This document shows positions 4,939-56,547 of a stretch of 64,000 nucleotides of DNA, piece after piece. The notes below the pieces were generated by a model. That model did not search any database. It was given only the letters and a program-made list of their open reading frames with translations, and was not told the DNA's origin. Source of the DNA: Patescibacteria group bacterium. Lineage in GTDB: Bacteria; Patescibacteriota; WWE3; JAUXAW01; JAYEID01. The DNA lies in contig JAYEID010000013.1 of the NCBI GenBank assembly GCA_034659915.1, positions 10,627-74,626 of the forward strand, in the 5' to 3' direction. Within the stretch, counting starts at the first letter, position 1; each line of letters begins with the position of its first letter. A program made the position numbers and the translations under genes.

Positions 4939-5973
4939 ATGTCCAGGCGCAAAAACTCGTATGCGAGTTTTGGTAAGGGGGTAGATACACTTGAATCGTG
5001 GAGCTTTGAGGAACTAAAAAGGGCGGTGCAACTACCCGAAGATTTGTTGGAATGGGAGTCAACACCGTACCGCAAGGATCAGGCAAAAAGAGTTTTGCTC
5101 GGTGCTGCGCGAGAGTTACGCCTTGCCGCTCTTCGCGTTATAGCTGAGCAGATGAGACATGTAGCCCGTCGCGGGAGCCCCTCTTGGGCTGGTAGTTCCT
5201 ATTCCCCAGCTTTGCGCAACCGGGTACTCTTTTTATTGGAACAACTGTCCTCTGAGCAATTGCCACAGCCAACTGGGGGTCTGGTCTGGCAGCAAAGGTT
5301 CGCGATTGAGGAACTTGTTCTTAATGTGTTCGCTGATGAGTGTTTCGAAAGAACTCTGTACGGCGATAGCTTTGGTAGGGAATATTTTCATGTGTTTCAG
5401 CGGATTTGGGAATGTACGATAGCCTTGCCGGAGAAGCGCTATTCACCTACACGAGAGTTTGTTGAGCTGTACGATATGTTCTGGAGGAGATTTGTCGATA
5501 AAAGCAAAGCACCTCCTTTAGGTGCTCATATGGAAATGCTCCTTCGTAAGAGAGCTTACAGCAACACCTCAGAAGAGTTTTCGGAGGAGCTAAAAGAGTT
5601 CATTGACAGCGTGTGTGCGTGGTTAATTCGAGACGAAAAGAATGATGACCTGCTTCACTACATACGCCGTTATGGATTTTCGCAGACACGGCACGTACTC
5701 GAAAGACGTTTTTGGAAGATGCTCCTCAGGGCTGCGGAGCTGAGTGTGACAGATGACGAAGACCGCACTGCTTTTATGAAAATGCCTGTTCAGTGGGTAT
5801 TCGGGAATACAGAGGCTTGTAAGCACATCTCTAACCGGGTGGTTACCTCGTGGTGTGTAATGACAAGCCGCTCCATTGATGGCGCTGTGCGCGAGCCGTT
5901 CGAGGTTCCGCAATGGGTGAAGCGGACAAAGGTTTGGCTGGAATTTGAGAAGTGTGTGGAAACCTATACTTGA
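4939..5973 (+). CDS. Hypothetical protein (344 aa), Arg/Trp-rich, no recognised domain
   Basis: Long ORF with AAGGAGG RBS (4926-4932); local GC visibly higher than neighbouring genes; followed by a hairpin and T-run terminator at 6071-6118. Confidence 0.5.
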   Translation: MSRRKNSYASFGKGVDTLESWSFEELKRAVQLPEDLLEWESTPYRKDQAKRVLLGAARELRLAALRVIAEQMRHVARRGSPSWAGSSYSPALRNRVLFLLEQLSSEQLPQPTGGLVWQQRFAIEELVLNVFADECFERTLYGDSFGREYFHVFQRIWECTIALPEKRYSPTREFVELYDMFWRRFVDKSKAPPLGAHMEMLLRKRAYSNTSEEFSEELKEFIDSVCAWLIRDEKNDDLLHYIRRYGFSQTRHVLERRFWKMLLRAAELSVTDDEDRTAFMKMPVQWVFGNTEACKHISNRVVTSWCVMTSRSIDGAVREPFEVPQWVKRTKVWLEFEKCVETYT

Positions 5974-13322: not shown

Positions 13323-15605
13323 ATGGGAAAGAGAGGACGTCCCCGAAAAGTTAAATTTGAGTTAGAGAGAGATGCTGCACATTCTATTGCAGCAGTAGCA
13401 ATTTTGGCTTTATCTATTCTTACTCTTCTCTCCTTTTTTGGTCAGGCTGCAGGTTTTGGTTCTATGCTACAGAAGCTATTGAATCGTGTTTTTGGGTGGG
13501 GTGCTTTTTTAGTTCCTTTTATTCTTGCCCTTTCTAGCCTTATTCTTTTTCGCAAATTGAAATGGAAGATTATTCAGCCTCGGATACTTACGGGTTTGGT
13601 TCTTTTTTTGCTATCTTTTGATGGTACTGTTCATTTTTTCTTTTCTCCAGCTGTTGCTAAAGAGGAAGCTCTTATGGGCCAAGGAGGTGGAATGTTGGGG
13701 TATATTATTCAGAAATATCTTCGCACTTTTTTAGGTCCCTTTGGTGCTATTTTAATTTTGGCCTCATTTCTTTTAGTTTCTGTTTTGGTTATCTTTAATG
13801 CATCATTGGATGAAACCTTAGTATTTTTGGGTAATGTTTTAAGCGGGATAGGGAGATTTTTTGAAAACTTTGTTTTTAGAGGCACTTTGAAAGTTGTTCG
13901 GAAGCTTATTGGTCGGGAAGATGATTTGGAGGCTGAGGTTGTGGAAGGTAAAGAAGGTAGTTCTGAGTTGTCCTATGTGGGTGACGATGATGAGGAATCT
14001 GAAGGCGAGGTGGAGGAAGAGAAACAAGTTGAGAAAGTGCGGAGAGATGATTTGGTTGTTGTACAAGCTACTTATACTCCGCTTGGTGTAGAAGAGGATT
14101 CTGAGGATGTTGGGGAAGATGTAGAAAAAGCTCCATTGCGGCACGAAACTGTAGCAAATCTTCCGGAGAGTAAGAAAGAATGGGAGTATCCCCCACTAAG
14201 TATATTGGAAGATATACCTCCTTATAAGAAGGATCAGGAGGAGATGAAAGATGAGGCGCAGAAGATTGAAGATACTTTGGAGTCTTTTGGAATTAAAGCA
14301 AATGTTGCAGATGTAAAAATAGGACCTACTGTTACTCAATATGCTTTGGAAGCTGCTTCTGGTACAAAGCTTACAAAAATAACTACGCTCCATAAAGATC
14401 TTGCTATGGCTTTAGCCTCCTCTACTGGATCTGTGCGAATAGAGGCACCTATTCCAGGGAAGTCGTTAGTAGGTATTGAGGTACCCAATAAAAAGCCGGC
14501 AACGGTAGGGTTGAAGAGTGTGTTAACTTCCGAAGCAATGAAAAAATCTTCTTCTGTTTTGAGTGTGGCGCTTGGGAAGAATGTTTCCGGGCGGCCCCAA
14601 GTGGCTGATTTGGCTAGGATGCCTCACGTGTTAATTGCTGGTGCTACGGGGAGTGGTAAGTCAGTTCTTATTCACTCCTTCATCTGTTCATTGCTTTTTC
14701 GAACTACTCCAGAGGAGGTTCGACTGATTTTGGCAGACCCTAAGAGGGTTGAACTTTCAATTTATAGAGAAATTCCCCACCTTTTGACTCCTGTTATTTT
14801 GGATTCGGATAAGATGCTCCCTACTTTAGATTGGGCTGTGGAAGAGATGGAACGAAGATATAAACTCTTTCAAGATGCTGGGGCTAAAGATATTGATTCT
14901 TATAATGAAATTTCTGGTTTTCAGGCACTCCCTAAGATTGTTTTGGTTGTGGATGAATTAGCGGACTTGATGGCAGCAGCAGCGAACGAAGTTGAGAAAG
15001 CGGTTGTCCGGTTGGCCCAGATGTCAAGGGCTACCGGTGTTCACTTGGTTCTTTCCACACAGCGGCCTTCTACTGATGTTTTGACTGGGTTGATCAAGGC
15101 AAATATTCCTTGTCGGATAGCGCTGAATACAACCTCGGGAGTAGATTCACGGGTAATTATTGATCAGCCTGGGGCAGATAAGCTCTTGGGGCGCGGAGAT
15201 ATGCTGTACTTACCTCCTGAAGCGTCTACGCCCAAGCGAATTCAAGCTCCCTTTATTTCACTTATTGAAATTAAAGCCCTTGTTGATTTCCTACGAGAAG
15301 AGATGGAGGAAGAACCGGAGTTTGAGGAAAGTCTTCAGGAGGCTCAAGAGAAAATTAGCCAAAGGAACAAGTTGGCTGAGGAGGAGAATTTGGAAGGGCT
15401 TAGTGATGAGCTGTTCCCAGATGCTGTGGAGGTTGTTTGTCGTCATGATCGTGGTTCCGCTTCTCTTCTTCAGCGAAAGCTTTCTATTGGTTATGCGAGG
15501 GCTGCAAGGCTTTTGGATGCTCTAGAGGCTAAGGGCGTGGTTGGTCCTAAGGATGGTTCCAAACCCCGCGAACTTTTGGTTTCCGATCCCAGCGAAGTGC
15601 TGTAG
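13323..15605 (+). CDS. ftsK: DNA translocase FtsK/SpoIIIE
   Basis: N-terminal TM helices, an acidic linker, motor domain with Walker A GATGSGKSV, and a C-terminal gamma winged-helix domain. Confidence 0.92.
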   Translation: MGKRGRPRKVKFELERDAAHSIAAVAILALSILTLLSFFGQAAGFGSMLQKLLNRVFGWGAFLVPFILALSSLILFRKLKWKIIQPRILTGLVLFLLSFDGTVHFFFSPAVAKEEALMGQGGGMLGYIIQKYLRTFLGPFGAILILASFLLVSVLVIFNASLDETLVFLGNVLSGIGRFFENFVFRGTLKVVRKLIGREDDLEAEVVEGKEGSSELSYVGDDDEESEGEVEEEKQVEKVRRDDLVVVQATYTPLGVEEDSEDVGEDVEKAPLRHETVANLPESKKEWEYPPLSILEDIPPYKKDQEEMKDEAQKIEDTLESFGIKANVADVKIGPTVTQYALEAASGTKLTKITTLHKDLAMALASSTGSVRIEAPIPGKSLVGIEVPNKKPATVGLKSVLTSEAMKKSSSVLSVALGKNVSGRPQVADLARMPHVLIAGATGSGKSVLIHSFICSLLFRTTPEEVRLILADPKRVELSIYREIPHLLTPVILDSDKMLPTLDWAVEEMERRYKLFQDAGAKDIDSYNEISGFQALPKIVLVVDELADLMAAAANEVEKAVVRLAQMSRATGVHLVLSTQRPSTDVLTGLIKANIPCRIALNTTSGVDSRVIIDQPGADKLLGRGDMLYLPPEASTPKRIQAPFISLIEIKALVDFLREEMEEEPEFEESLQEAQEKISQRNKLAEEENLEGLSDELFPDAVEVVCRHDRGSASLLQRKLSIGYARAARLLDALEAKGVVGPKDGSKPRELLVSDPSEVL

Positions 15606-15670
15606 TTTTTGCGCCGGGGGTACGCGTTTTCAAGAACCGCGCGCCCGACTAGTGACTTTGGTGACTGCGC

Positions 15671-15760
15671 GCTTAGAGAAAAATTTGCTTTGGTCCGGGG
15701 TTAGTAGATAACTAATTGTAAGCAAATTTTTCTATGCTCTTGAAAACGGCACCCCCGCCA
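15671..15760. repeat. Diverged partial copy of the 172-nt element (3' module) downstream of ftsK
   Basis: GCTTAGAGAAAAATTTGCTTT...AAGCAAATTTTTCTATGCTCTTGAAAACGGCACCCCCGCC aligns with the 3' half of the 172-nt element plus the GGCACCCCCGCC boundary motif. It is flanked by ~45-nt direct repeats (15577-15625 and 15801-15850). Confidence 0.75.
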
Positions 15761-15867
15761 TGCTTACAGCGTGAAAGTATCTGTTCTTAATCTGATTAGC
15801 GTATTTTGATTTCCAATCCCAGCGAAGTGACGTAAATTTCGGGGGTCCGCCGGATTCGCGCGAGACT

Positions 15868-15985
15868 TTGACAGGCACCCCCCTTTCAGGGCCGCTCGCA
15901 CCGTTCAGCGTTGGAGAGTAGGAAAGAGAACCGCTCGCTTTGTGATCAAAACCCTTCATGGCGGGAGCCTGCCAAGTCCCTTTCC
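15868..15985. repeat. Intergenic repeat family B, copy 2 (upstream of rodZ-like)
   Basis: Shares GGCACCCC..CT.TCAGGGCCGCTCGC.CC ... CGCT.GCTTTGTGATCAAAA..CCCTTCA.GGCGGGAGCC.GCCAA with 53603-53760. Confidence 0.75.
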
Positions 15986-16030
15986 TTTTATCCGCGTAAA
16001 TCCGTATTAAATCTGCGAGAATCCTATTCT

Positions 16031-16768
16031 ATGAAATCTGTTGGCGAAATTCTAAAGAAAACACGTAAAAAACAAGGTTATTCTCTTTTAGAAGTTTCAG
16101 AAGAATTAAAAATCCACCCCCGGTTCCTAAAGGCGTTGGAAAGCGGGGATTATAATGTTTTTGCACACACTTTGCATGCAAAGGGTTTTTTGAAAAACTA
16201 TGCCGATTTTTTGGGATTAAATGTTTCTGAGGTTTTAGCTTTTTGGCGGCGTGAATATAAAGATTTTTCTGAGGAACCTGAAATTTGTGATGTTACTAAG
16301 CCTTTGGATCAACCTAGGGTTGTAATAACTCCAAAGAAACTTATTGCCTTTATATCTGCTTTCTTTGTGTTGGGGTTTTTAGCTTATGTCTTTTGGCAAT
16401 ACCGGTCTATTGCTGGTCCTCCGCGTTTGGAGGTGGTGGTACCCAAGCAAGATATGATAGTTTCGGAACCGCAAATAACTTTAAAGGGAAGTGCGGATCC
16501 AGCAGCCACACTTACTATTAACGGTCAGGAAGTTTTGTTGGGTGATGATGGTAGGTTTGCTTTTGATTATGTTCTTTCTGATGGTCCTAACACTTTGACC
16601 TTTACTGCAGTGAATGAGTTTGGAAAAGAAGCAGAGGTTACCCGTACTCTCATTTATGATCGTCCTAGGGATGTGACTTTGCCGCCTCCCGCATCAACGC
16701 CATCAGCTACTCCATCTGCTGAGCAAGAATCTACACCTTCTGCAATACCGGAGATGGATAGCGAATAG
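16031..16768 (+). CDS. rodZ: RodZ-like cytoskeleton protein (XRE-type HTH, TM helix, C-terminal beta domain)
   Basis: MKSVGEILKKTRKKQGYSLLEVSEELKIHPRFLKALESGDY HTH, one TM helix, a DUF4115-like C-terminus and a Pro/Ser/Thr tail. The ORF-track extension to 15911 overlaps a repeat element, so it is most likely not coding. Confidence 0.7.
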   Translation: MKSVGEILKKTRKKQGYSLLEVSEELKIHPRFLKALESGDYNVFAHTLHAKGFLKNYADFLGLNVSEVLAFWRREYKDFSEEPEICDVTKPLDQPRVVITPKKLIAFISAFFVLGFLAYVFWQYRSIAGPPRLEVVVPKQDMIVSEPQITLKGSADPAATLTINGQEVLLGDDGRFAFDYVLSDGPNTLTFTAVNEFGKEAEVTRTLIYDRPRDVTLPPPASTPSATPSAEQESTPSAIPEMDSE

Positions 16769-17592: not shown

Positions 17593-19629
17593 TTGCAACC
17601 ACCGCTTTTTTCCGTTATTCTTAAGAACACAGTGACAGCTAGAGAATTGATTGAAAAGTATATTTCCTTTTTTGAGGCGCGTGGTCATGTTGAGATTGCT
17701 GGGGCTTCCTTAGTACCAGAAAATGATCCTTCTGCACTTTTTATCTCTGCTGGTATGCACCCTCTAATTCCCTTCTTGTTGGGAGAAGAACACCCTGCTG
17801 GTAAGCGCTTAGTTAGCTTACAAAAATGTATTCGAACAAATGATATTGAGCAAGTAGGTGACGGGTTTCATCATACCTTCTTCTTAATGCTTGGAAACTG
17901 GTCTTTGGGTGATTATTTTAAAAAAGAGGCAATCTCTTTTAGTTTTGAATTTCTTACTTCTTCTGAGTGGTTAGGGTTAGCTCCGGAAAGGTTGTATGTT
18001 TCTGTTTTTGCTGGTGATGAGACTGCTTCCCGGGATAAGGAGTCAATTAAGTATTGGAAGTTAGAATTTAAGAAAGTAGGGATTAAGGCTGAGGTGGGTG
18101 AGAGGATATTCTTCTTTGGAAAAGAAGAAAACTGGTGGGGACCTGTAGGTGATACAGGACCTTGCGGACCTGATACAGAAATATTTTATGATATAGGCAA
18201 AGACCATTGTGGTCCTAATTGCGATCCCTCTTGTCAATGTGGGAAATATATTGAAATTTGGAATGATGTGTTTATGGAATTTAAAAGAATCCGCCGGTTG
18301 GCGGACCGCAAACCGCAAACCGTGAACCGTGAACCGCAAGATAAAGAGCGGAAGGCGGAGAGCGGTTCGCGGAATGCCGATTACGAATATGTTCCTTTAG
18401 AGCAGAAAAATGTAGATACGGGGATGGGTGTAGCTAGGGTTGTTGCAGTTACTAGCGGCTACGCAGATGATGATTATAAAACCGACCTTTTCCACCCTAT
18501 TATTTCCAAGATTGAAGACTTGTCTGGTAAAGAATACCAGCAATTAGAAGTTAACAATGAACAATCGTTAGTTAGTTCAATGCGCATTATTGCTGATCAT
18601 GTACGGGCAGCTGTTTTTGCTATCAGTGATGGTGTAGTACCTTCAAATACAGATCGAGGTTACGTGGTTAGGCGACTAATTCGCCGTGCTGTTCGTCATG
18701 GACATGCTTTAAACATCCAAGATAGCTTTTTGGGGCAAGTTGCAGAGGTTGTAATTGAGAATTATAAGGATCTTTTTCCTGGGTTGGAAAGTGAGGAGGA
18801 AACAATACTTACTGAGATTTCCGATGAGGAAAAAAGATTTGGTAAGGTTTTGCGGAGAGGTTTGAAGCATTTTGAAAAGTTGGTTGAACAAAAAGTTGGT
18901 GATGAAACGCTGCCGCACCTGCCTGCCGGCAAGGCAGGTTCCCCAGCCCCTGGGGCTGCGGCCAAAGAAGCCCCAGGGGCTTCTCCTGCGCTGGGCGAGC
19001 GAATTACCGGGGAAGAAGCCTTCGACCTTTACCAAACATATGGGTTTCCGTTGGAGTTAACCAAAGAGCTGGCAGAGGAAAGGGGTTTAGCGGTTGATAG
19101 AAAGGGGTTTGAAGAGGCCTACAAAAAGCACCAAGAGAAATCCCGTTCTGGTGCAGATAAGAAATTTAGTGGGGGTTTGGTAAGTGAATCTGAAGAAGTT
19201 ATAAAACTGCATACAGCTACCCATCTTTTGCACGAAGCTCTGCGCCAGGTATTGGGTGCTCATGTAAAGCAGGAAGGGTCGAACATTACTCCCCAAAGAT
19301 TGCGGTTCGATTTTTCCCATCCAAAAGCAATGACGGAGGAGGAGATTGGAGAAGTCGAAGCTCTAGTTAATGAAAAAATAGAGGAAGATTTGCCCGTGCG
19401 GAAAGAGACCATGTCATTAGAGGAGGCAAGGGAGCGGGGTGCTTTAGCGTTTTTTACAGATAAATATGGAGATGAGGTGAAAGTTTATTCTATTGGCGGA
19501 TTTTCAAAAGAAGTTTGCGCTGGTCCTCATGTTGATTCTACCGGGAAACTTGGTAAATTTGAGATAATAAAGGAAGAATCTGTGGGTCGCGGTAAACGGA
19601 GAATCCGTGCTATACTGAAAAAGGATTAG
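17593..19629 (+). CDS. alaS: Alanyl-tRNA synthetase, short form (catalytic, tRNA-binding and editing domains; no C-Ala domain)
   Basis: Class II AlaRS core (ARGHVEIAGASLVP...FISAGMHP...QKCIRTNDIE..GDGFHHTFFLMLGNWSLGDYFK) and an editing domain with HxxxH...CAGPH. The start is uncertain: TTG at 17593 or GTG at 17630 (MTARELIEKY). The gene carries an in-frame 78-nt GC-rich repeat at 18913-18990. Confidence 0.9.
   Translation: MQPPLFSVILKNTVTARELIEKYISFFEARGHVEIAGASLVPENDPSALFISAGMHPLIPFLLGEEHPAGKRLVSLQKCIRTNDIEQVGDGFHHTFFLMLGNWSLGDYFKKEAISFSFEFLTSSEWLGLAPERLYVSVFAGDETASRDKESIKYWKLEFKKVGIKAEVGERIFFFGKEENWWGPVGDTGPCGPDTEIFYDIGKDHCGPNCDPSCQCGKYIEIWNDVFMEFKRIRRLADRKPQTVNREPQDKERKAESGSRNADYEYVPLEQKNVDTGMGVARVVAVTSGYADDDYKTDLFHPIISKIEDLSGKEYQQLEVNNEQSLVSSMRIIADHVRAAVFAISDGVVPSNTDRGYVVRRLIRRAVRHGHALNIQDSFLGQVAEVVIENYKDLFPGLESEEETILTEISDEEKRFGKVLRRGLKHFEKLVEQKVGDETLPHLPAGKAGSPAPGAAAKEAPGASPALGERITGEEAFDLYQTYGFPLELTKELAEERGLAVDRKGFEEAYKKHQEKSRSGADKKFSGGLVSESEEVIKLHTATHLLHEALRQVLGAHVKQEGSNITPQRLRFDFSHPKAMTEEEIGEVEALVNEKIEEDLPVRKETMSLEEARERGALAFFTDKYGDEVKVYSIGGFSKEVCAGPHVDSTGKLGKFEIIKEESVGRGKRRIRAILKKD
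18913..18990. repeat. GC-rich palindromic repeat element inserted in-frame in alaS (copy 1)
   Basis: ~78 nt, ~90% identical to 29191-29269. Contains palindrome CCTGCCTGCCGGCAAGGCAGG and the inverted pair AGCCCCTGGGGCT / AGCCCCAGGGGCT. It is translated as PAGKAGSPAPGAAAKEAPGASPA. Confidence 0.85.
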
Positions 19630-28708: not shown

Positions 28709-29416
28709 ATGTCTGTTGTCGCACGAAGTTTTTATAAGGGAAAGACTACGAGTATTGCTAAAAACCTTTTGGGAAAGGTTTTGGTTCGCCACGTAAAGCC
28801 CACGGAGAGTGGGTCACGTGCCACCGAAGTTGAGAATGAAATAAACAAGAAAGGAATAATCGTAGAGACGGAGGCTTATTTAGGACCGGAGGATAAGGCT
28901 TGCCATTCCTTCAGAGGGAAGACAGAAAGAACGGAGGTAATGTTTGGACCGGCGGGGCATGCTTATGTTTATTTGGTTTACGGAATTCATTATATGTTTA
29001 ATATTGTGACTGAGGCTCCGGGAGAAGCTGTTTTGGTTCGAGCACTTGAACCCCTTGGTGGTGAATTTGGTAAACGCATTGCTTCCGGTCCGGGTAAACT
29101 GACAAAGTGGCTTAATATTGATAAAAGCTTCAACGGTTGGGATTTGACCAAGGGGGAGGGGTTGTGGATTTCCCATGAGCCGCGATCTTCGCCGTACCTG
29201 CTTGCCGGCAAGGCGGGTTCCCCAGCCCATGGGGCTGCGGCCAGAGAAGCCCCAGGGGCGTCTCTTGCGGCGGAGGATTTAGACCACGGAAATTTCGAAA
29301 TTTCTTCCGCAAAAAGAGTTGGTGTAGATTACGCCGAAGAGTGGTCGGAAAAACCGCTTCGTTTTTTCATCAAAGATAATCCCGCTGTTTCTACAGCGCA
29401 GGACTCCTTATGTTAA
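28709..29416 (+). CDS. 3-methyladenine DNA glycosylase (MPG/AAG family)
   Basis: VETEAYLGPEDKACHSFRGKTERTEVMFGPAGHAYVYLVYGIHYMFNIV matches the MPG family; carries the in-frame GC-rich repeat at 29191-29269. Confidence 0.8.
   Translation: MSVVARSFYKGKTTSIAKNLLGKVLVRHVKPTESGSRATEVENEINKKGIIVETEAYLGPEDKACHSFRGKTERTEVMFGPAGHAYVYLVYGIHYMFNIVTEAPGEAVLVRALEPLGGEFGKRIASGPGKLTKWLNIDKSFNGWDLTKGEGLWISHEPRSSPYLLAGKAGSPAHGAAAREAPGASLAAEDLDHGNFEISSAKRVGVDYAEEWSEKPLRFFIKDNPAVSTAQDSLC
29191..29269. repeat. GC-rich palindromic repeat element inserted in-frame in the MPG glycosylase gene (copy 2)
   Basis: Same element and same translated frame as copy 1 (LAGKAGSPAHGAAAREAPGAS). Confidence 0.85.
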
Positions 29417-39910: not shown

Positions 39911-39972
39911 CCTTGATGGCAGAACTTTAGCAGGCACCTCGCCCGTAGAAAGTTTCCGGTTGCGGAACGCGT

Positions 39973-40144
39973 CGGTGCTACACGCTTTCAAGAGCCCTTG
40001 TACTACATAGAGTACAGGGCAGGCCGTGCTTAGGATTGAGCGCGTTTACCCCGAACCCTGCGTGGTTTGGGGCTTAGAGAAAAATTTGCTTTTAGTTTAT
40101 TGTTAATTGATAGGTTATTGTGGGCAAATTTTTCTATGCTCTTG
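39973..40144. repeat. 172-nt structured intergenic repeat, copy 1 (between rpoB and rpoC)
   Basis: 100% identical to 50854-51025; internal hairpins (CTTGTACT/AGTACAGG; CCCCGAACC/GGTTTGGGG with a G-U pair) and a long-range inverted repeat TTAGAGAAAAATTTGC / GCAAATTTTTCTATGC. Confidence 0.9.
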
Positions 40145-40227
40145 GAAACGGTACCCCCGCCGCGCTCGACTCTGTTTATTAATCGTCCTGCTGATAGCTG
40201 ACTGCGGAAAGCTGTTAGCAGATTATT

Positions 40228-44592: not shown

Positions 44593-44670
44593 CAATTGTT
44601 CATCTATTGTTTATCGCGATTCTGATCGCAGTTTAACGGCAACTTCTGAGTTGCATTTTACGAGTGTTTA
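44593..44670 (+). ncRNA. Conserved intercistronic structured element (rpsL-rpsG), copy 1
   Basis: CAATTGT...CGCGATTCTGATCGCAGTTTAACG shared with 56461-56535; hairpin GCGAT-tctg-ATCGC and a second hairpin GCAACT-tctg-AGTTGC whose stem covaries with GCAGTT-tccg-AACTGC in copy 2. Confidence 0.5.
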
Positions 44671-44731
44671 GTGAGTTTATCTAGTAGTTAAGTTATGATT
44701 ATTTTATCGATTACCTTTTTGGCTTAAAGTC

Positions 44732-48937: not shown

Positions 48938-49249
48938 ATGGTTAAAGGTAATAAAATTAGAGTACGCTTAAAAGCTTATGATCATCGAGTAATTGATCAA
49001 TCAGCAGAGAAGATTGTGGATGTGGCAATAAGGACGGGAGCAAGAGTTTCGGGGCCAGTACCCCTGCCAACTGAGATTGAGCGTTGGACAGTTTGTGCTA
49101 GTCCTCATGTTGATAAGCGCTCGATGGAACAGTTTGAGCGGCGCACGCACAAGAGACTAGTTGATATTTTGGAGCCGACTCCAAAAACTTTAGATGAGCT
49201 TTCTCATCTCAACCTTCCTGCGGGTGTGGGAATTGAGATTGAAGGCTAG
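48938..49249 (+). CDS. rpsJ: 30S ribosomal protein S10
   Basis: [45 protein letters not shown]... Confidence 0.93.
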
Positions 49250-49430
49250 GTTTTTCTATTTATTTTTTTTTTGGAAGATGGGATTGTTTAGGTTAATTTC
49301 AAAAATAAACCTCAAGAATATTGTATTCATGGGAATAGACATTTTTGATTCATAAGAAGATTTGGTATAAATTTCGTCTCTTGCGTGGGCGCCAAATCGG
49401 CGTCTTTTTTAATGCCAAAATAAGGGAAAA

Positions 49431-50832: not shown

Positions 50833-50853
50833 TAGGTAGTATTGTGGATGCGC

Positions 50854-51025
50854 CGGTGCTACACGCTTTCAAGAGCCCTTGTACTACATAGAGTACAGGG
50901 CAGGCCGTGCTTAGGATTGAGCGCGTTTACCCCGAACCCTGCGTGGTTTGGGGCTTAGAGAAAAATTTGCTTTTAGTTTATTGTTAATTGATAGGTTATT
51001 GTGGGCAAATTTTTCTATGCTCTTG
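50854..51025. repeat. 172-nt structured intergenic repeat, copy 2 (between rplW and rplB)
   Basis: Identical to 39973-40144. Confidence 0.9.
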
Positions 51026-51185
51026 ATCCCCGCCGCATCTTCGAGTTTGGGGGGTTACAACTTGAAAGATTCCGTTCTAATTCGCGTAAATTCGTTTTAG
51101 ATTAGTGTGAATTCGTGTGGGTTCCGGAAACAATGCGATCACATTTCTTTTATCGATTAACTGTCAAAGCTGTCTAGTTGATATT

Positions 51186-52010: not shown

Positions 52011-52068
52011 GCATTTTTAAAAGCACCAAACATCAAATACCAAGTTCCAGAAGTTTGTTATTTGAAGT

Positions 52069-52096
52069 TTGGAGTTTGGAATTTAAAATTTAGTAT
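52069..52096 (+). promoter_or_regulatory. Conserved promoter-like module TTGGAG-16nt-TAGTAT upstream of rpsS
   Basis: Same architecture and spacer-sequence family as modules upstream of dnaK (8-35) and rplV (52447-52474). Confidence 0.4.
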
Positions 52097-52113
52097 TTAG
52101 AATTTAAAAAATT

Positions 52114-52407: not shown

Positions 52408-52446
52408 GGGAGAATTTCGAAATTCGAATCTCGAAATCCAAAATAT

Positions 52447-52474
52447 TTGGAGCTTAGGATTTAGAATTTATGAT
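52447..52474 (+). promoter_or_regulatory. Conserved promoter-like module TTGGAG-16nt-TATGAT upstream of rplV
   Basis: ATTTGGAGCTTAGG.ATTTAGAATTTA is shared almost verbatim with positions 6-29 upstream of dnaK. Confidence 0.4.
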
Positions 52475-52484
52475 TTAAATTATT

Positions 52485-52823
52485 ATGGTTGTTTATGCTC
52501 GAAGCAAAAGTTTACCAATATCTCCGCAGAAGATGAACTTGGTTTTGGATTTAATTCGGGGAAAAGATATTGCAGAAGCAAGGAAGATACTTACTTTTTC
52601 TACAAAGAAGGCAGCCGGTCTTGCTAAGAAGGCTTTGAATTCAGCTGTAGCAGATGCTAAGCACAATGAGGGTTTAAGAGAAGATGAGCTAAAAATAGTG
52701 GAAGCCCGAGCAGATAAGGCTCCTACTTTGAAGCGGATCCGGCCTAGAGCTAGGGGGCGTGCTGATAGAATTTTAAAAAGACGTACACATCTTACCATTG
52801 GTGTAGGGACGGAAGAAGGATAA
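52485..52823 (+). CDS. rplV: 50S ribosomal protein L22
   Basis: L22 family, 112 aa. Confidence 0.93.
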
Positions 52824-52958: not shown

Positions 52959-53591
52959 ATGGGTCAAAAAACACATCCGATTGGATTTAGATTAGGGACA
53001 ACTTCAGATTGGAAATCACAGTGGTTCGAGGAAGATCCAGAAGCCTATGCGGAAAAAGTTTTGGAAGATAGGAAGATTAGAGAGTTTATTCGGGAGAATG
53101 TTGGTAGGGCTGGTGTTAGCGAGATACGAATTGAACGATCTCTGGATGATATTAAAGTAACTATTAAGGTTGCTCGACCAGGTATGGTAATTGGGCGTGG
53201 TGGTTCTAGAATTGAACTTTTGCGCGACGGTTTAGAAGATATTTGTAGTAAAAAACCAGAGATCTCGGTTGAGGAGGTCAAGACTCCCGCACTTTCTGCT
53301 AGGTTAATTGCTGAAAATATAGCTCGGCAAATTGAACGACGCCGCTCCCCCATTGGAGTTATGAACTCGCAAGCTAGCAAAGCAATTTATAAAGGGGCAA
53401 AGGGAATAAAGATTCAAGTACGAGGGCGGTTATATGGTAGCCAGTATGCGCGGAAAGCAGAGGTTACTGAAGGTTCAGTTCCTTTGCAAACAATTCGTGC
53501 AAGTATTGATTATGCTTTTGATGAAGCAAGAACTAAGTATGGGAAAATCGGGGTTAAAGTTTGGGTTTATTTGGGAGAAGAGGAAATATAA
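52959..53591 (+). CDS. rpsC: 30S ribosomal protein S3
   Basis: KH domain and the S3 C-terminal domain. Confidence 0.96.
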   Translation: MGQKTHPIGFRLGTTSDWKSQWFEEDPEAYAEKVLEDRKIREFIRENVGRAGVSEIRIERSLDDIKVTIKVARPGMVIGRGGSRIELLRDGLEDICSKKPEISVEEVKTPALSARLIAENIARQIERRRSPIGVMNSQASKAIYKGAKGIKIQVRGRLYGSQYARKAEVTEGSVPLQTIRASIDYAFDEARTKYGKIGVKVWVYLGEEEI

Positions 53592-53602
53592 TATGAAAAG
53601 AC

Positions 53603-53760
53603 TTTGGCGGGCACCCCGCCTCTCAGGGCCGCTCGCGCCTGTCGAAGTTTAAGTCTGATTTGGTTAAGCGCTTGCTTTGTGATCAAAAGTCGAATGGTGT
53701 CAGTGAATAATTGTAGCGACTTTTGATCAAAACCCTTCAAGGCGGGAGCCAGCCAACGTC
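53603..53760. repeat. Intergenic repeat family B, copy 1 (between rpsC and rplP), with a nested hairpin insertion
   Basis: Same modules as 15868-15985, plus a ~45-nt insert forming TGATCAAAAGTCG...CGACTTTTGATCA (53680-53730), flanked by direct repeat GATCAAAA. Confidence 0.75.
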
Positions 53761-53850
53761 TTGTTAGATTCTTAGTTTGGAGTTTTTGATTTGTTGTTTA
53801 TTTGAAATTTGTAATTTGTTCCGCCGGCCGGCGGATTGGAATTATTAACT

Positions 53851-54270
53851 ATGTTGTATCCAAAAAAGAAGAAATATAGAAGAGAATTTAGAGGAACTCT
53901 TAAAGGTGTTGCTCAACGAGGGACAACACTGGCTTTTGGTGATTATGGTTTAAAAGCCTTGGGTAATGGTTGGATAACTATGCGCCAAATAGAAGCAGCA
54001 CGGAGGGCTATAGTTCATTCTACCAAGAGAAGTGGGAAAATGTGGATAAGGATTTTTCCAGATAAGCCTGTTACAGCTAGACCTGCGGGAATGAGAATGG
54101 GTCGGGGTAAGGGTCCTGTTGACCATTATGTGGCGCCAGTTAAGGCTGGAAGAATTCTGTTTGAGTTGGGAGGATTAGATGAGGGTGCTGCTCGAGAAGC
54201 TTTGCGGCGTGCTGCTAACAAGCTTCCAACTAAGACAGAAATAGTTACTCAAGAGGATTTTGTAGTTTAA
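53851..54270 (+). CDS. rplP: 50S ribosomal protein L16
   Basis: MLYPKKKKYRREFRG...; start at 53851 rather than the ORF-track start at 53836. Confidence 0.94.
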   Translation: MLYPKKKKYRREFRGTLKGVAQRGTTLAFGDYGLKALGNGWITMRQIEAARRAIVHSTKRSGKMWIRIFPDKPVTARPAGMRMGRGKGPVDHYVAPVKAGRILFELGGLDEGAAREALRRAANKLPTKTEIVTQEDFVV

Positions 54271-56460: not shown

Positions 56461-56535
56461 CAATTGTATTACTATCGTTTTACGCGATTCTGATCGCAGT
56501 TTAACGCAGTTTCCGAACTGCATTTAACGTGAGCG
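56461..56535 (+). ncRNA. Conserved intercistronic structured element (rpsN-rpsH), copy 2
   Basis: See copy 1; compensatory base changes keep the second hairpin. Confidence 0.5.
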
Positions 56536-56547
56536 TAGCGAGCTATT

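Follow-up and report, generated by a model that had tools for sequence, protein, structure and literature searches.

What fills the spacer between rpsC and rplP in a 64,000-nt stretch of a Patescibacteria group bacterium (contig JAYEID010000013.1, assembly GCA_034659915.1; this whole stretch is called the window), and is it related to the sequence between ftsK and rodZ? The sequence-only reading of the window had proposed that the two spacers, at 53.6 and 15.9 kb, share modules and belong to a second family of repeats. The similarity of the two spacers was confirmed, as they hold real copies of one repeat, here called family B. Family B is a non-coding structured repeat of ~165-175 nt, specific to the lineage of a small Patescibacteria clade. 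It is a new family of a known repeat kind, the class of ERIC, bcr1 and BOX. It consists of P1, a ~28-bp stem that both ends form and that closes the element; P2, an arm that varies; and P3, a 13-15-bp hairpin, which is the part that can be lost. Our preferred reading, held with moderate confidence, is that family B is an ERIC/bcr1-like structured repeat that duplicates rarely, is co-transcribed with its neighbours and folds in their mRNA.

Window positions 53598-53764 and 15862-15980 align from end to end with a mean column identity of 75%, which places the true boundaries slightly wider than first described. There are exactly two occurrences of the 27-mer TGATCAAAACCCTTCANGGCGGGAGCC in the window and none in 100 shuffles, and TCAGGGCCGCTCGC is exact at both loci. 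The shared modules were recovered by blastn at E values of 2e-8 and 3e-4, and self-blastn of the window found both again. Alignment, 27-mer and blastn bear out the claim of shared modules, and with it the claim of a second repeat family. Similarity beyond short GC-rich words had been set in advance as the test, and such similarity was found by the whole-length alignment and by blastn. The two copies (B53 and B15) and the parts of the complete one are as follows.

53598..53764, + strand: B53, complete family B copy in the rpsC-rplP spacer; covariance model (CM) R1, 142.8 bits
53598..53628, + strand: B53 P1 5' arm (AAGAC.TTGGC.GGC..CCCGCCT...AGGG), placed by minimum free energy (MFE), consensus pairs and covariation; holds GGCACCCCGCC
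53631..53675, + strand: B53 P2 arm; closing pairs GC..GCGC / GCGC..GC conserved, interior variable
53680..53729, + strand: B53 P3 hairpin TGATCAAAAGTCG / CGACTTTTGATCA; perfect 13-bp stem, 24-nt loop
53733..53762, + strand: B53 P1 3' arm (CCCT...AGGCGGG.GCC.GCCAA.GTCTT), placed by MFE, consensus pairs and covariation
15862..15980, + strand: B15, deletion derivative of family B in the ftsK-rodZ spacer; CM 44.4 bits, E 7e-12

B53 lies between the stop codon of rpsC, which ends at 53591, and the ATG of rplP at 53851. Its RNA has an MFE of -68.5 kcal/mol (z = -4.8) on the + strand and -70.3 kcal/mol (z = -6.4) on the - strand. B15 has lost P3 between the TGATCAAAA repeats, its P2 has degenerated, and its fold is weak (z-scores -0.5 and -1.9). 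Outside B, 15 nt 5' of the rplP start, is a perfect 16-nt GC palindrome, TCCGCCGGCCGGCGGA, at 53820-53835; a related word, TCCGCCGG, stands at 15846-15853 just before B15.

In P3 of B53, TGATCAAAAGTCG at 53680-53692 pairs with CGACTTTTGATCA at 53717-53729. A repeat search gave arms of 16 nt (53677-53692 and 53717-53732) that are 94% complementary, and the direct repeat TGATCAAAA lies at 53680-53688 and 53724-53732. The perfect 13-bp hairpin and its direct repeat are present as the sequence-only reading described them. Its interpretation of them, an insertion within an insertion, does not hold, as all four family B copies outside the window carry an equivalent hairpin, AGATCGAAAGCC...GGCTTTCGATCT, with compensatory differences from the window version. 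P3 is thus an ancestral module, and B15 is a derivative that lacks it. B15 corresponds to B53 minus 44 nt, cut exactly between the 9-nt TGATCAAAA repeats, a deletion of the slippage type.

B15 also bears on the annotation of its neighbour. ftsK occupies 13323-15605, and a RodZ-like helix-turn-helix gene lies downstream of B15. The extension of the rodZ open reading frame (ORF) at 15911-16030 had been taken for repeat that does not code, and this is supported by two observations. The HTH_25 domain of the extended ORF starts only at residue 47, and rodZ orthologues are called from the ATGAAATCTGT start with lengths of 238-247 aa. Because HTH_25 begins at residue 47, the true rodZ start is the ATG at 16031.

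Loci of relatives were obtained via RpsC and FtsK homologues. Together with the window they brought the B copies to six, at two sites and in five genomes. The four found beyond the window are these.

L003:1089-1260: B copy in the rpsC-rplP spacer; GCA_964581885.1, RpsC 93% identical to the window protein
L019:6891-7062: B copy in the ftsK-rodZ spacer; GCA_964581615.1, FtsK 80% identical to the window protein
L021:12304-12476: B copy in the ftsK-rodZ spacer; GCA_964467235.1, FtsK 78% identical to the window protein
L023:2629-2794: B copy in the ftsK-rodZ spacer; GCA_964476415.1, FtsK 82% identical to the window protein

The three copies in ftsK-rodZ spacers are positional orthologues of B15 and are intact. 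The same B sequence as in the window is present in an independent Logan assembly, L002. Exact protein matches to the genes at the window edges led only to short Logan contigs.

A consensus structure was derived with RNAalifold from five full-length B copies. It has a three-helix design in which P1 (~28 bp) is made of two segments and P2 is closed by conserved CG.TCGC / GCG..CG pairs around a variable interior. Double compensatory changes, in which at least one sequence has changed on both sides with pairing kept, were found at 19/48 consensus pairs. Shuffled controls gave 6.7 ± 2.0 such pairs and 0/500 reached 19, and sliding the partners by 1-3 columns gave at most 6. Overall 88.6% of cells are paired; helix 3 (P2) is 100% paired across the five sequences, and helix 4 (P3) has 15 pairs, 5 of them with double changes, and is 98.7% paired. 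All copies share this fold, and it co-varies.

The two ends of every copy are complementary and close the long stem, a point that had been missed. The outer P1 ends differ between genomes, and each matches its own partner (TTGGCGGGC / GCCAGCCAA, TTTTGTGGC / GCCCCAAAA, TTTTGCGGTA / TACCGCAAAA and ATGTCGGGG / CTCCGACAT). Within the window genome B15 and B53 share their end sequences. The core, CGTTCGCGG and GCGCTCACTCAGAGATCGAAAGCC...GGCTTTCGATCTATG, hardly varies among the four copies from other genomes. Since the P1 ends are variable and the core is conserved, the pattern is the reverse of that expected of terminal repeats bound by a transposase.

This covariation also decides the status of GGCACCCCGCC, which had been proposed as a boundary motif or a preferred target. 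GGCACCCCGCC forms the inner part of the P1 5' arm, and its pairing partner is GGCGGGAGCC. Relatives have GGTACCGCGC, GGCCCCACGCC or GGGGTCACGCC in these columns, with matching changes in the partner arm. Because it is replaced in relatives while its partner changes, GGCACCCCGCC is neither a fixed boundary nor a target word. Words like GGCACC(C)CGCC occur at 53610-53620, 39933-39943 (GGCACCTCGCC), 40150-40161 (GGTACCCCCGCC) and 15749-15760, and a search with the 11-mer, one mismatch allowed, gave 3 matches where 0.41 were expected. Such words had also been reported at the edges of copies of another spacer repeat, family A; they are there, with one coordinate (39933-39943) corrected by ~9 nt. 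In family A a similar word sits in the 3' arm and pairs with GGGGGTACGC of the 5' arm. Just 5' of the rpoB-rpoC copy of family A, window 39930-39985 forms a small GC-rich hairpin (GCAGGCACCTCGCC...TTCCGgttgCGGAA...CGTCGGTGC) that holds GGCACCTCGCC and is not part of A in other copies.

Both families are dispersed, with two B and three A copies in the window, and their presence at a given site differs between relatives. At the rpsC-rplP spacer the window has B, L003 has both B and A, L007 has only A, and L006 has neither family. In the more distant L024 (FtsK 68%) the ftsK-rodZ spacer is empty and measures 64 nt, and in L018 it lacks B. An A copy lies 5' of alaS in L019 and is absent at that site in the window. 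Two unrelated structured sequences were observed in rpsC-rplP spacers of more distant relatives, a GC-rich element of ~300 nt closed by TATCGCTATCCCAAAACAA / TTGTTTTGGGATGGCGATA at L009:10634-10950 and a palindrome of ~85 nt at L006:3601-3699. This spacer seems to be a hot spot for structured insertions.

Where family B is present it is more conserved than neighbouring synonymous sites. Between L019 and L021 the element is 95% identical with a single 1-nt indel, third codon positions are 58% identical in ftsK and 69% in rodZ, and the adjacent spacer flanks are 85-86% identical in aligned columns or 51-58% counting large indels. Between L019 and L023 the element is 82% identical in aligned columns, and third positions 46% (ftsK) and 40% (rodZ). 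Family A follows suit, with 91% between L003 and L007 and 47% at third positions of rpsC. The two window copies are another matter. B53 and B15 are 86% identical in aligned columns, B15 and its positional orthologues 70-81%, and B53 and the L003 copy 68%; B53 and B15 also share lineage-specific ends and junctions. Their greater likeness points either to recent copying inside the window genome or to gene conversion between copies.

All copies lie 2-60 nt 3' of a stop codon and 60-110 nt 5' of the next start, on the same strand as both genes. Counting A and B together, 7/7 distinct sites are co-oriented with the flanking genes, for which the probability is ~2^-7 if the sites are independent, with orientation confounded with replication direction. 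T-runs follow some copies in relatives (L019:7096-7102 for B, L019:8950-8956 for A).

Family A resembles B in layout. Its three window copies are as follows.

15597..15772, + strand: A15, family A copy directly 3' of the ftsK stop; 170.5 bits by nhmmer with the A hidden Markov model (HMM); P1/P2/P3 as in B
39965..40169, + strand: family A copy with enlarged P2 in the rpoB-rpoC spacer; repeat D1/D2; A-HMM 84.9 bits, 3' half
50846..51042, + strand: family A copy with shortened 3' arm in the rplW-rplB spacer; A-HMM 62.7 bits

Over 176 nt, the copies at 50846-51042 and at 40.0 kb are 99% identical. RNAalifold of family A gave 49 pairs, 9 with double changes, in the same P1/P2/P3 layout. A CM built from family B alone matches A copies over the full length of the model. 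It gave 47.8 bits (E 1.6e-12) at L003:1298-1460, 35.1 bits (E 5e-9) at window 15602-15769, 21.2 bits (E 1e-4) at 39965-40169 and 10.2 bits (E 0.26) at 50846-51042; other window hairpins scored at most 11 bits. Since a model of B alone recovers A copies, A and B share an architecture. Aligned to the CM, they have in common the short blocks GGTAC.GC and AGAGA-stem ... stem-TCTATGC. Run with nhmmer, HMMs made from the sequence of either family do not match the other, and pairwise A-B z-scores range from -0.8 to 5.2. Because the HMMs do not cross-match and the pairwise scores are weak, our claim is confined to shared architecture; A and B may be of common descent. Directly after P3 in the family A 3' arm is ATGCTCTTG(A/G)AAAC, for example at 15735-15748 and 40136-40149. 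It resembles the boxA antitermination sequence of E. coli rrn operons, TGCTCTTTAACAA, maybe by coincidence.

In the ftsK-rodZ spacer of the window the two families adjoin. Between A15 and B15 lies a direct duplicate of an upstream segment.

15799..15850, + strand: direct duplicate of 15568-15625, comprising ~38 nt from the 3' end of ftsK, the ftsK stop codon and the first bases of the A 5' arm

The duplicate is 24/26 identical in its core, with 0/2000 shuffles as good, and extends over ~52-58 nt; the duplication flanks A15 plus 31 nt. B directly follows an A 5'-arm fragment in the window, L019 and L021. In the latter two the duplicated segment is single, and the order is ftsK end, A 5' fragment and then B, so B probably sits inside a former A copy. 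Either a duplication-type event added a full A to the window, or A was lost from L019 and L021 when the repeats recombined. Elements probably do nest in each other, at a place other than the one first suggested. A similar trace was observed in L003, where GAAGAGATCTAAGTAAGCTGTGTCGTGGG at 1283-1311, between B and A, matches the L007 rpsC 3' end and A boundary (0/2000 shuffles as good). B seems to have entered 5' of an older rpsC end there, which would be a second case of a duplicated gene 3' end beside an element.

Family B has the size and habits of repeats known from other bacteria. Elements measure 119-175 nt, and six-frame translation yields only short open frames, interrupted in some copies, with no transposase ORF of their own. 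Rfam 15 gave 0 matches across the window at gathering scores, and its sole window match at E <= 5 was an unrelated small nucleolar RNA model at 13944-14004. No tRNA was found anywhere in the window. The repeat had no blastn match among plasmids and phages, and the ALTQRSKA frame of the element, searched against 5.8 billion proteins, found only the 45-aa ORF of L003 itself.

Hulton in 1991 and Wilson & Sharp in 2006 are said to have described ERIC copies at orthologous sites, conservation above neutral and indel variants at fixed points. Like family B, ERIC (~127 bp) is an imperfect palindrome that forms a long stem and lies in transcribed spacers 3' of genes. Repeats of the ERIC/bcr1 class lie at gene 3' ends and are co-transcribed; they influence the stability or cleavage of mRNA and contain compensatory changes (PMC3184786, PMC3049150), and effects on mRNA cleavage and stability have been reported for ERIC itself (PMC3184786, PMC3049150). 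ERIC differs from B in phylum, in sequence, to which B has no similarity, and in its single hairpin where B has three helices. ERIC occurs in both orientations, whereas B and A copies, a small sample, are all sense. ERIC-type copies in Photorhabdus have TA flanks and target duplications (PMC3184786), which were not seen in B. bcr1 of the Bacillus cereus group (~155 bp) is similar in size, and its distribution likewise is not conserved between related strains. It is transcribed, and compensatory changes keep its cruciform-like RNA fold (PMC3184786). It differs from B in that 5-bp direct repeats flank it, with none seen at B, in lacking any sequence similarity, and in its known transcription, which for B is predicted.

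In the pneumococcal BOX element (boxA-boxB(n)-boxC) the end modules pair, and an internal self-folding module can be absent or repeated with the other modules unaffected (PMC3049150). P3, present in B53 and missing from B15, behaves like that internal module. BOX is built of discrete tandem cassettes, whereas B varies by a single deletion, and BOX termini resemble an insertion sequence (ISSpn2), whereas no such partner is known for B. The Correia elements of Neisseria (CREE, 104-157 bp) are also small, intergenic and complementary at their ends. Correia elements end in conserved terminal inverted repeats of 26 bp and carry TA duplications, whereas the ends of B vary and co-vary and no duplication was seen. 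Correia elements are co-transcribed and a reported RNase III target (PMC3049150), and are present or absent between close strains (PMC3184786). Repetitive extragenic palindromes (REP/BIME) are GC-rich, follow genes and have roles in mRNA stability (PMC3184786). REPs are single hairpins of 20-40 nt, often clustered, whereas B has 120-175 nt and three helices, and no RAYT-like gene was found among the window ORFs tested.

By this comparison family B would be a repeat without a gene, copied a few times into spacers just 3' of stop codons. It would be transcribed within the surrounding operon, always in the sense direction, and its RNA would fold in the mRNA as a closed three-helix structure. The compensatory changes indicate that this fold is kept by selection. 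The likeliest reason for keeping it may be that P1 serves the upstream cistron as a 3'-proximal structure, a stabiliser or a processing element. Candidate roles for such a structure are a block to exonucleases, a processing site for an endonuclease and, in some copies, a terminator. Terminator action would apply where a T-run follows, as at L019:7096-7102 and L019:8950-8956. Such behaviour has been described for ERIC, Correia, BIME and bcr1 elements (PMC3184786, PMC3049150). For family B we infer its transcription, its selection as RNA, its part in stabilising or processing mRNA and its mode of copying.

Several results weigh against this reading. The sample is thin, six B copies at two sites, and DNA scans of whole collections yielded chance matches only: for AAACCCTTCANGGCGGGAGCC, one in a Gemmatimonadales coding region in genome_contigs and none in metagenome_contigs; for the family A core GCAAATTTTTCTATGCTCNTG, one inside a kinase-like ORF in metagenome_contigs; and in three scans of viral_contigs, chance matches or none. 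Because only chance matches were returned, this lineage is taken to be absent from the scanned collections. Between L019 and L021 the loops show the same degree of conservation as the stems, which recent spread would explain as well as purifying selection does. On the + strand the consensus pairs contain more A.C cells (11) than G.U cells (6), and folding energies of the + and - strands are mixed over the six copies. Since neither pair types nor strand energies carry a signal of an RNA strand, the fold could equally be kept at the DNA level. The + strand carries nearly all window genes, and GC skew stays positive along the whole window, which confounds orientation. No terminator-like site was found on the + strand at the 3' end of B53 or B15, and no sigma-70-like promoter at the elements. 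Inspection of the flanks of the six B copies gave no short target-site duplication, and a Pfam scan of 20 window ORFs gave no transposase or Y1-transposase domain.

The last two results bear equally on a first alternative, that family B is a plain selfish MITE (a miniature transposable element with inverted repeats). Its ends would then be terminal inverted repeats for a transposase encoded elsewhere, and the fold a by-product with no role for the host. Small size, below the ~400 bp that bounds MITEs (PMC3184786, PMC3049150), absence of coding capacity, complementary termini and several copies per genome would all suit a MITE, as would presence or absence between relatives and the greater likeness of copies within a genome than of positional orthologues. 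A fragments adjoining B suggest nesting, other palindromic repeat families occur in the same genome, and there is no strand-specific G.U signal. We nevertheless consider a MITE unlikely. The termini are complementary in all copies, differ between genomes and are the least conserved and co-varying part around a conserved core; transposase-bound ends would show the opposite. No target-site duplication was seen in the flanks, where the sole duplication found was the ~52-58-nt ftsK 3'-end repeat around A15, and no transposase was among the window ORFs tested. Orientation is identical at the seven sites, and the element is kept at the same spacer in four genomes, conserved above its flanks. Because short target duplications are missing and terminal-repeat conservation is ambiguous, family B was not filed as a classical MITE.

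A second alternative extends to both families. A and B together may be a new functional class of structured RNA in this Patescibacteria clade, with a three-way-junction core under purifying selection, controlling transcript 3' ends, processing or read-through. Its sites would be those just after stop codons in essential operons (rpsC-rplP, rpoB-rpoC, rplW-rplB, ftsK-rodZ and 5' of alaS), and it might have spread in an unusual way, with duplication of the target gene's 3' end, as around A15 and as hinted by the rpsC relic in L003. This idea is tentative and improbable as it stands. Its narrower form, in which B is a new family of cis-acting or small RNA genes that has a conserved three-way junction at its core, was duplicated a few times and is not mobile, we regard as rather doubtful. 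A conserved core with a co-varying closing stem is typical of functional RNAs. Conservation above synonymous sites and adjacent spacer, a fixed position just 3' of stop codons, a fixed orientation and absence from Rfam even at permissive thresholds, so that the family would be new, also fit. Against it, B follows genes as unrelated as ftsK and rpsC, with no common gene association. B has been lost or degraded without replacement in close relatives (L018, L006) and in the window itself, where B15 has no P3 and folds weakly. Pair types show no strand asymmetry, promoter-like and terminator-like signals are missing, and the same spacers hold unrelated structured elements in other relatives.

The model of the sequence-only reading, in which A and B are modules of one composite element, GGCACCCCGCC marks its boundary or target and a hairpin was secondarily inserted into the 53.6-kb copy, is now very improbable. 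Similar GC-rich words do stand at A and B edges, A adjoins B in the ftsK-rodZ spacer of the window and in L003, and the CM derived from B recognises A. However, the hairpin is in all four non-window copies with compensatory changes, and the motif changes from genome to genome together with the arm it pairs with. Each family is also found alone at several sites, A in L007, in L018, at 40.0 and 50.9 kb of the window and at L019:8788-8947, and B at 53.6 kb of the window and in L023; where they occur together it is in either order, and their sequence HMMs do not cross-match. Chance matching of GC-rich words or an assembly artefact, for which only the GC-rich composition of the modules speaks, is refuted by the exact 27-mer found twice, by the same sequence in the independent assembly L002 and by related copies in four other assemblies.

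Known classes of structured elements were also tried and rejected. A retron non-coding RNA was set aside because no reverse transcriptase adjoins any copy, and an integron attC site because core housekeeping genes flank the element and an R''/R' box pair is lacking. A hammerhead or other known ribozyme does not fit, as there are no core motifs and no Rfam match, and a ribosomal-protein autoregulatory leader does not fit, as the same element also follows ftsK. 6S RNA was rejected on the several copies and the three-way junction in place of one bubble, and REP/BIME on size, the three-helix layout and the lack of a Y1-transposase domain in the tested ORFs.

Patescibacteria genomes are small and streamlined, and literature searches found no interspersed structured repeats described in them. 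The present clade carries several such families inside its most conserved operons, with lengthened spacers between ribosomal-protein genes. The repeats create false ORF extensions (rodZ) and spurious small ORFs (L003:1162-1299), and they coincide with some contig ends of the short-read Logan assemblies, where L002 starts in an A copy and L015 in a D4 copy. Knowledge of family B thus helps annotation. It also offers a compact, co-varying RNA or DNA fold as a candidate for a role in operon expression, in organisms in which almost no regulatory RNA is known.

The same genome carries further small palindromic repeat families, one of which is inserted in frame in genes. This 79-nt repeat (72-74% GC) lies at window 18912-18990 and 29191-29269, the two copies being 91% identical. 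They are in the alaS ORF, after residue 440 at the end of the first Pfam stretch, and in a methylpurine-DNA glycosylase ORF, after residue 160. The in-frame reading is LP(H/Y)L(P/L)AGKAGSPA(P/H)GAAA(K/R)EAPGAS. It recalls the Rickettsia palindromic elements, which are likewise in-frame coding insertions. Further copies are at L023:5321-5372 and 5713-5762 and at the start of L015/L016. The L023 copies are 98-100% identical to a window copy, and ftsK third codon positions only 58%.

Three other repeats were observed in the window. An intergenic pair at 44593-44675 and 56461-56542 (77% identical) occupies the rpsL-rpsG and rpsN-rpsH spacers and is found in relatives' spacers as well (L003:4429-4486, L007:2583-2617). 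An 18-nt inverted repeat, GGCGCACGCACAAGAGAC / GTCTCTTGCGTGGGCGCC at 49140-49157 and 49376-49393 (83% complementary), spans the 3' part of the rpsJ ORF to just 5' of rplC. Lastly, the AT-rich repeat TATTTGGAGCTTAGG.TTAGAATTTAG.ATTTAAA stands at 5-50, 52066-52101 and 52444-52487, just 5' of dnaK, rpsS and rplV, and may be a common promoter or leader motif.

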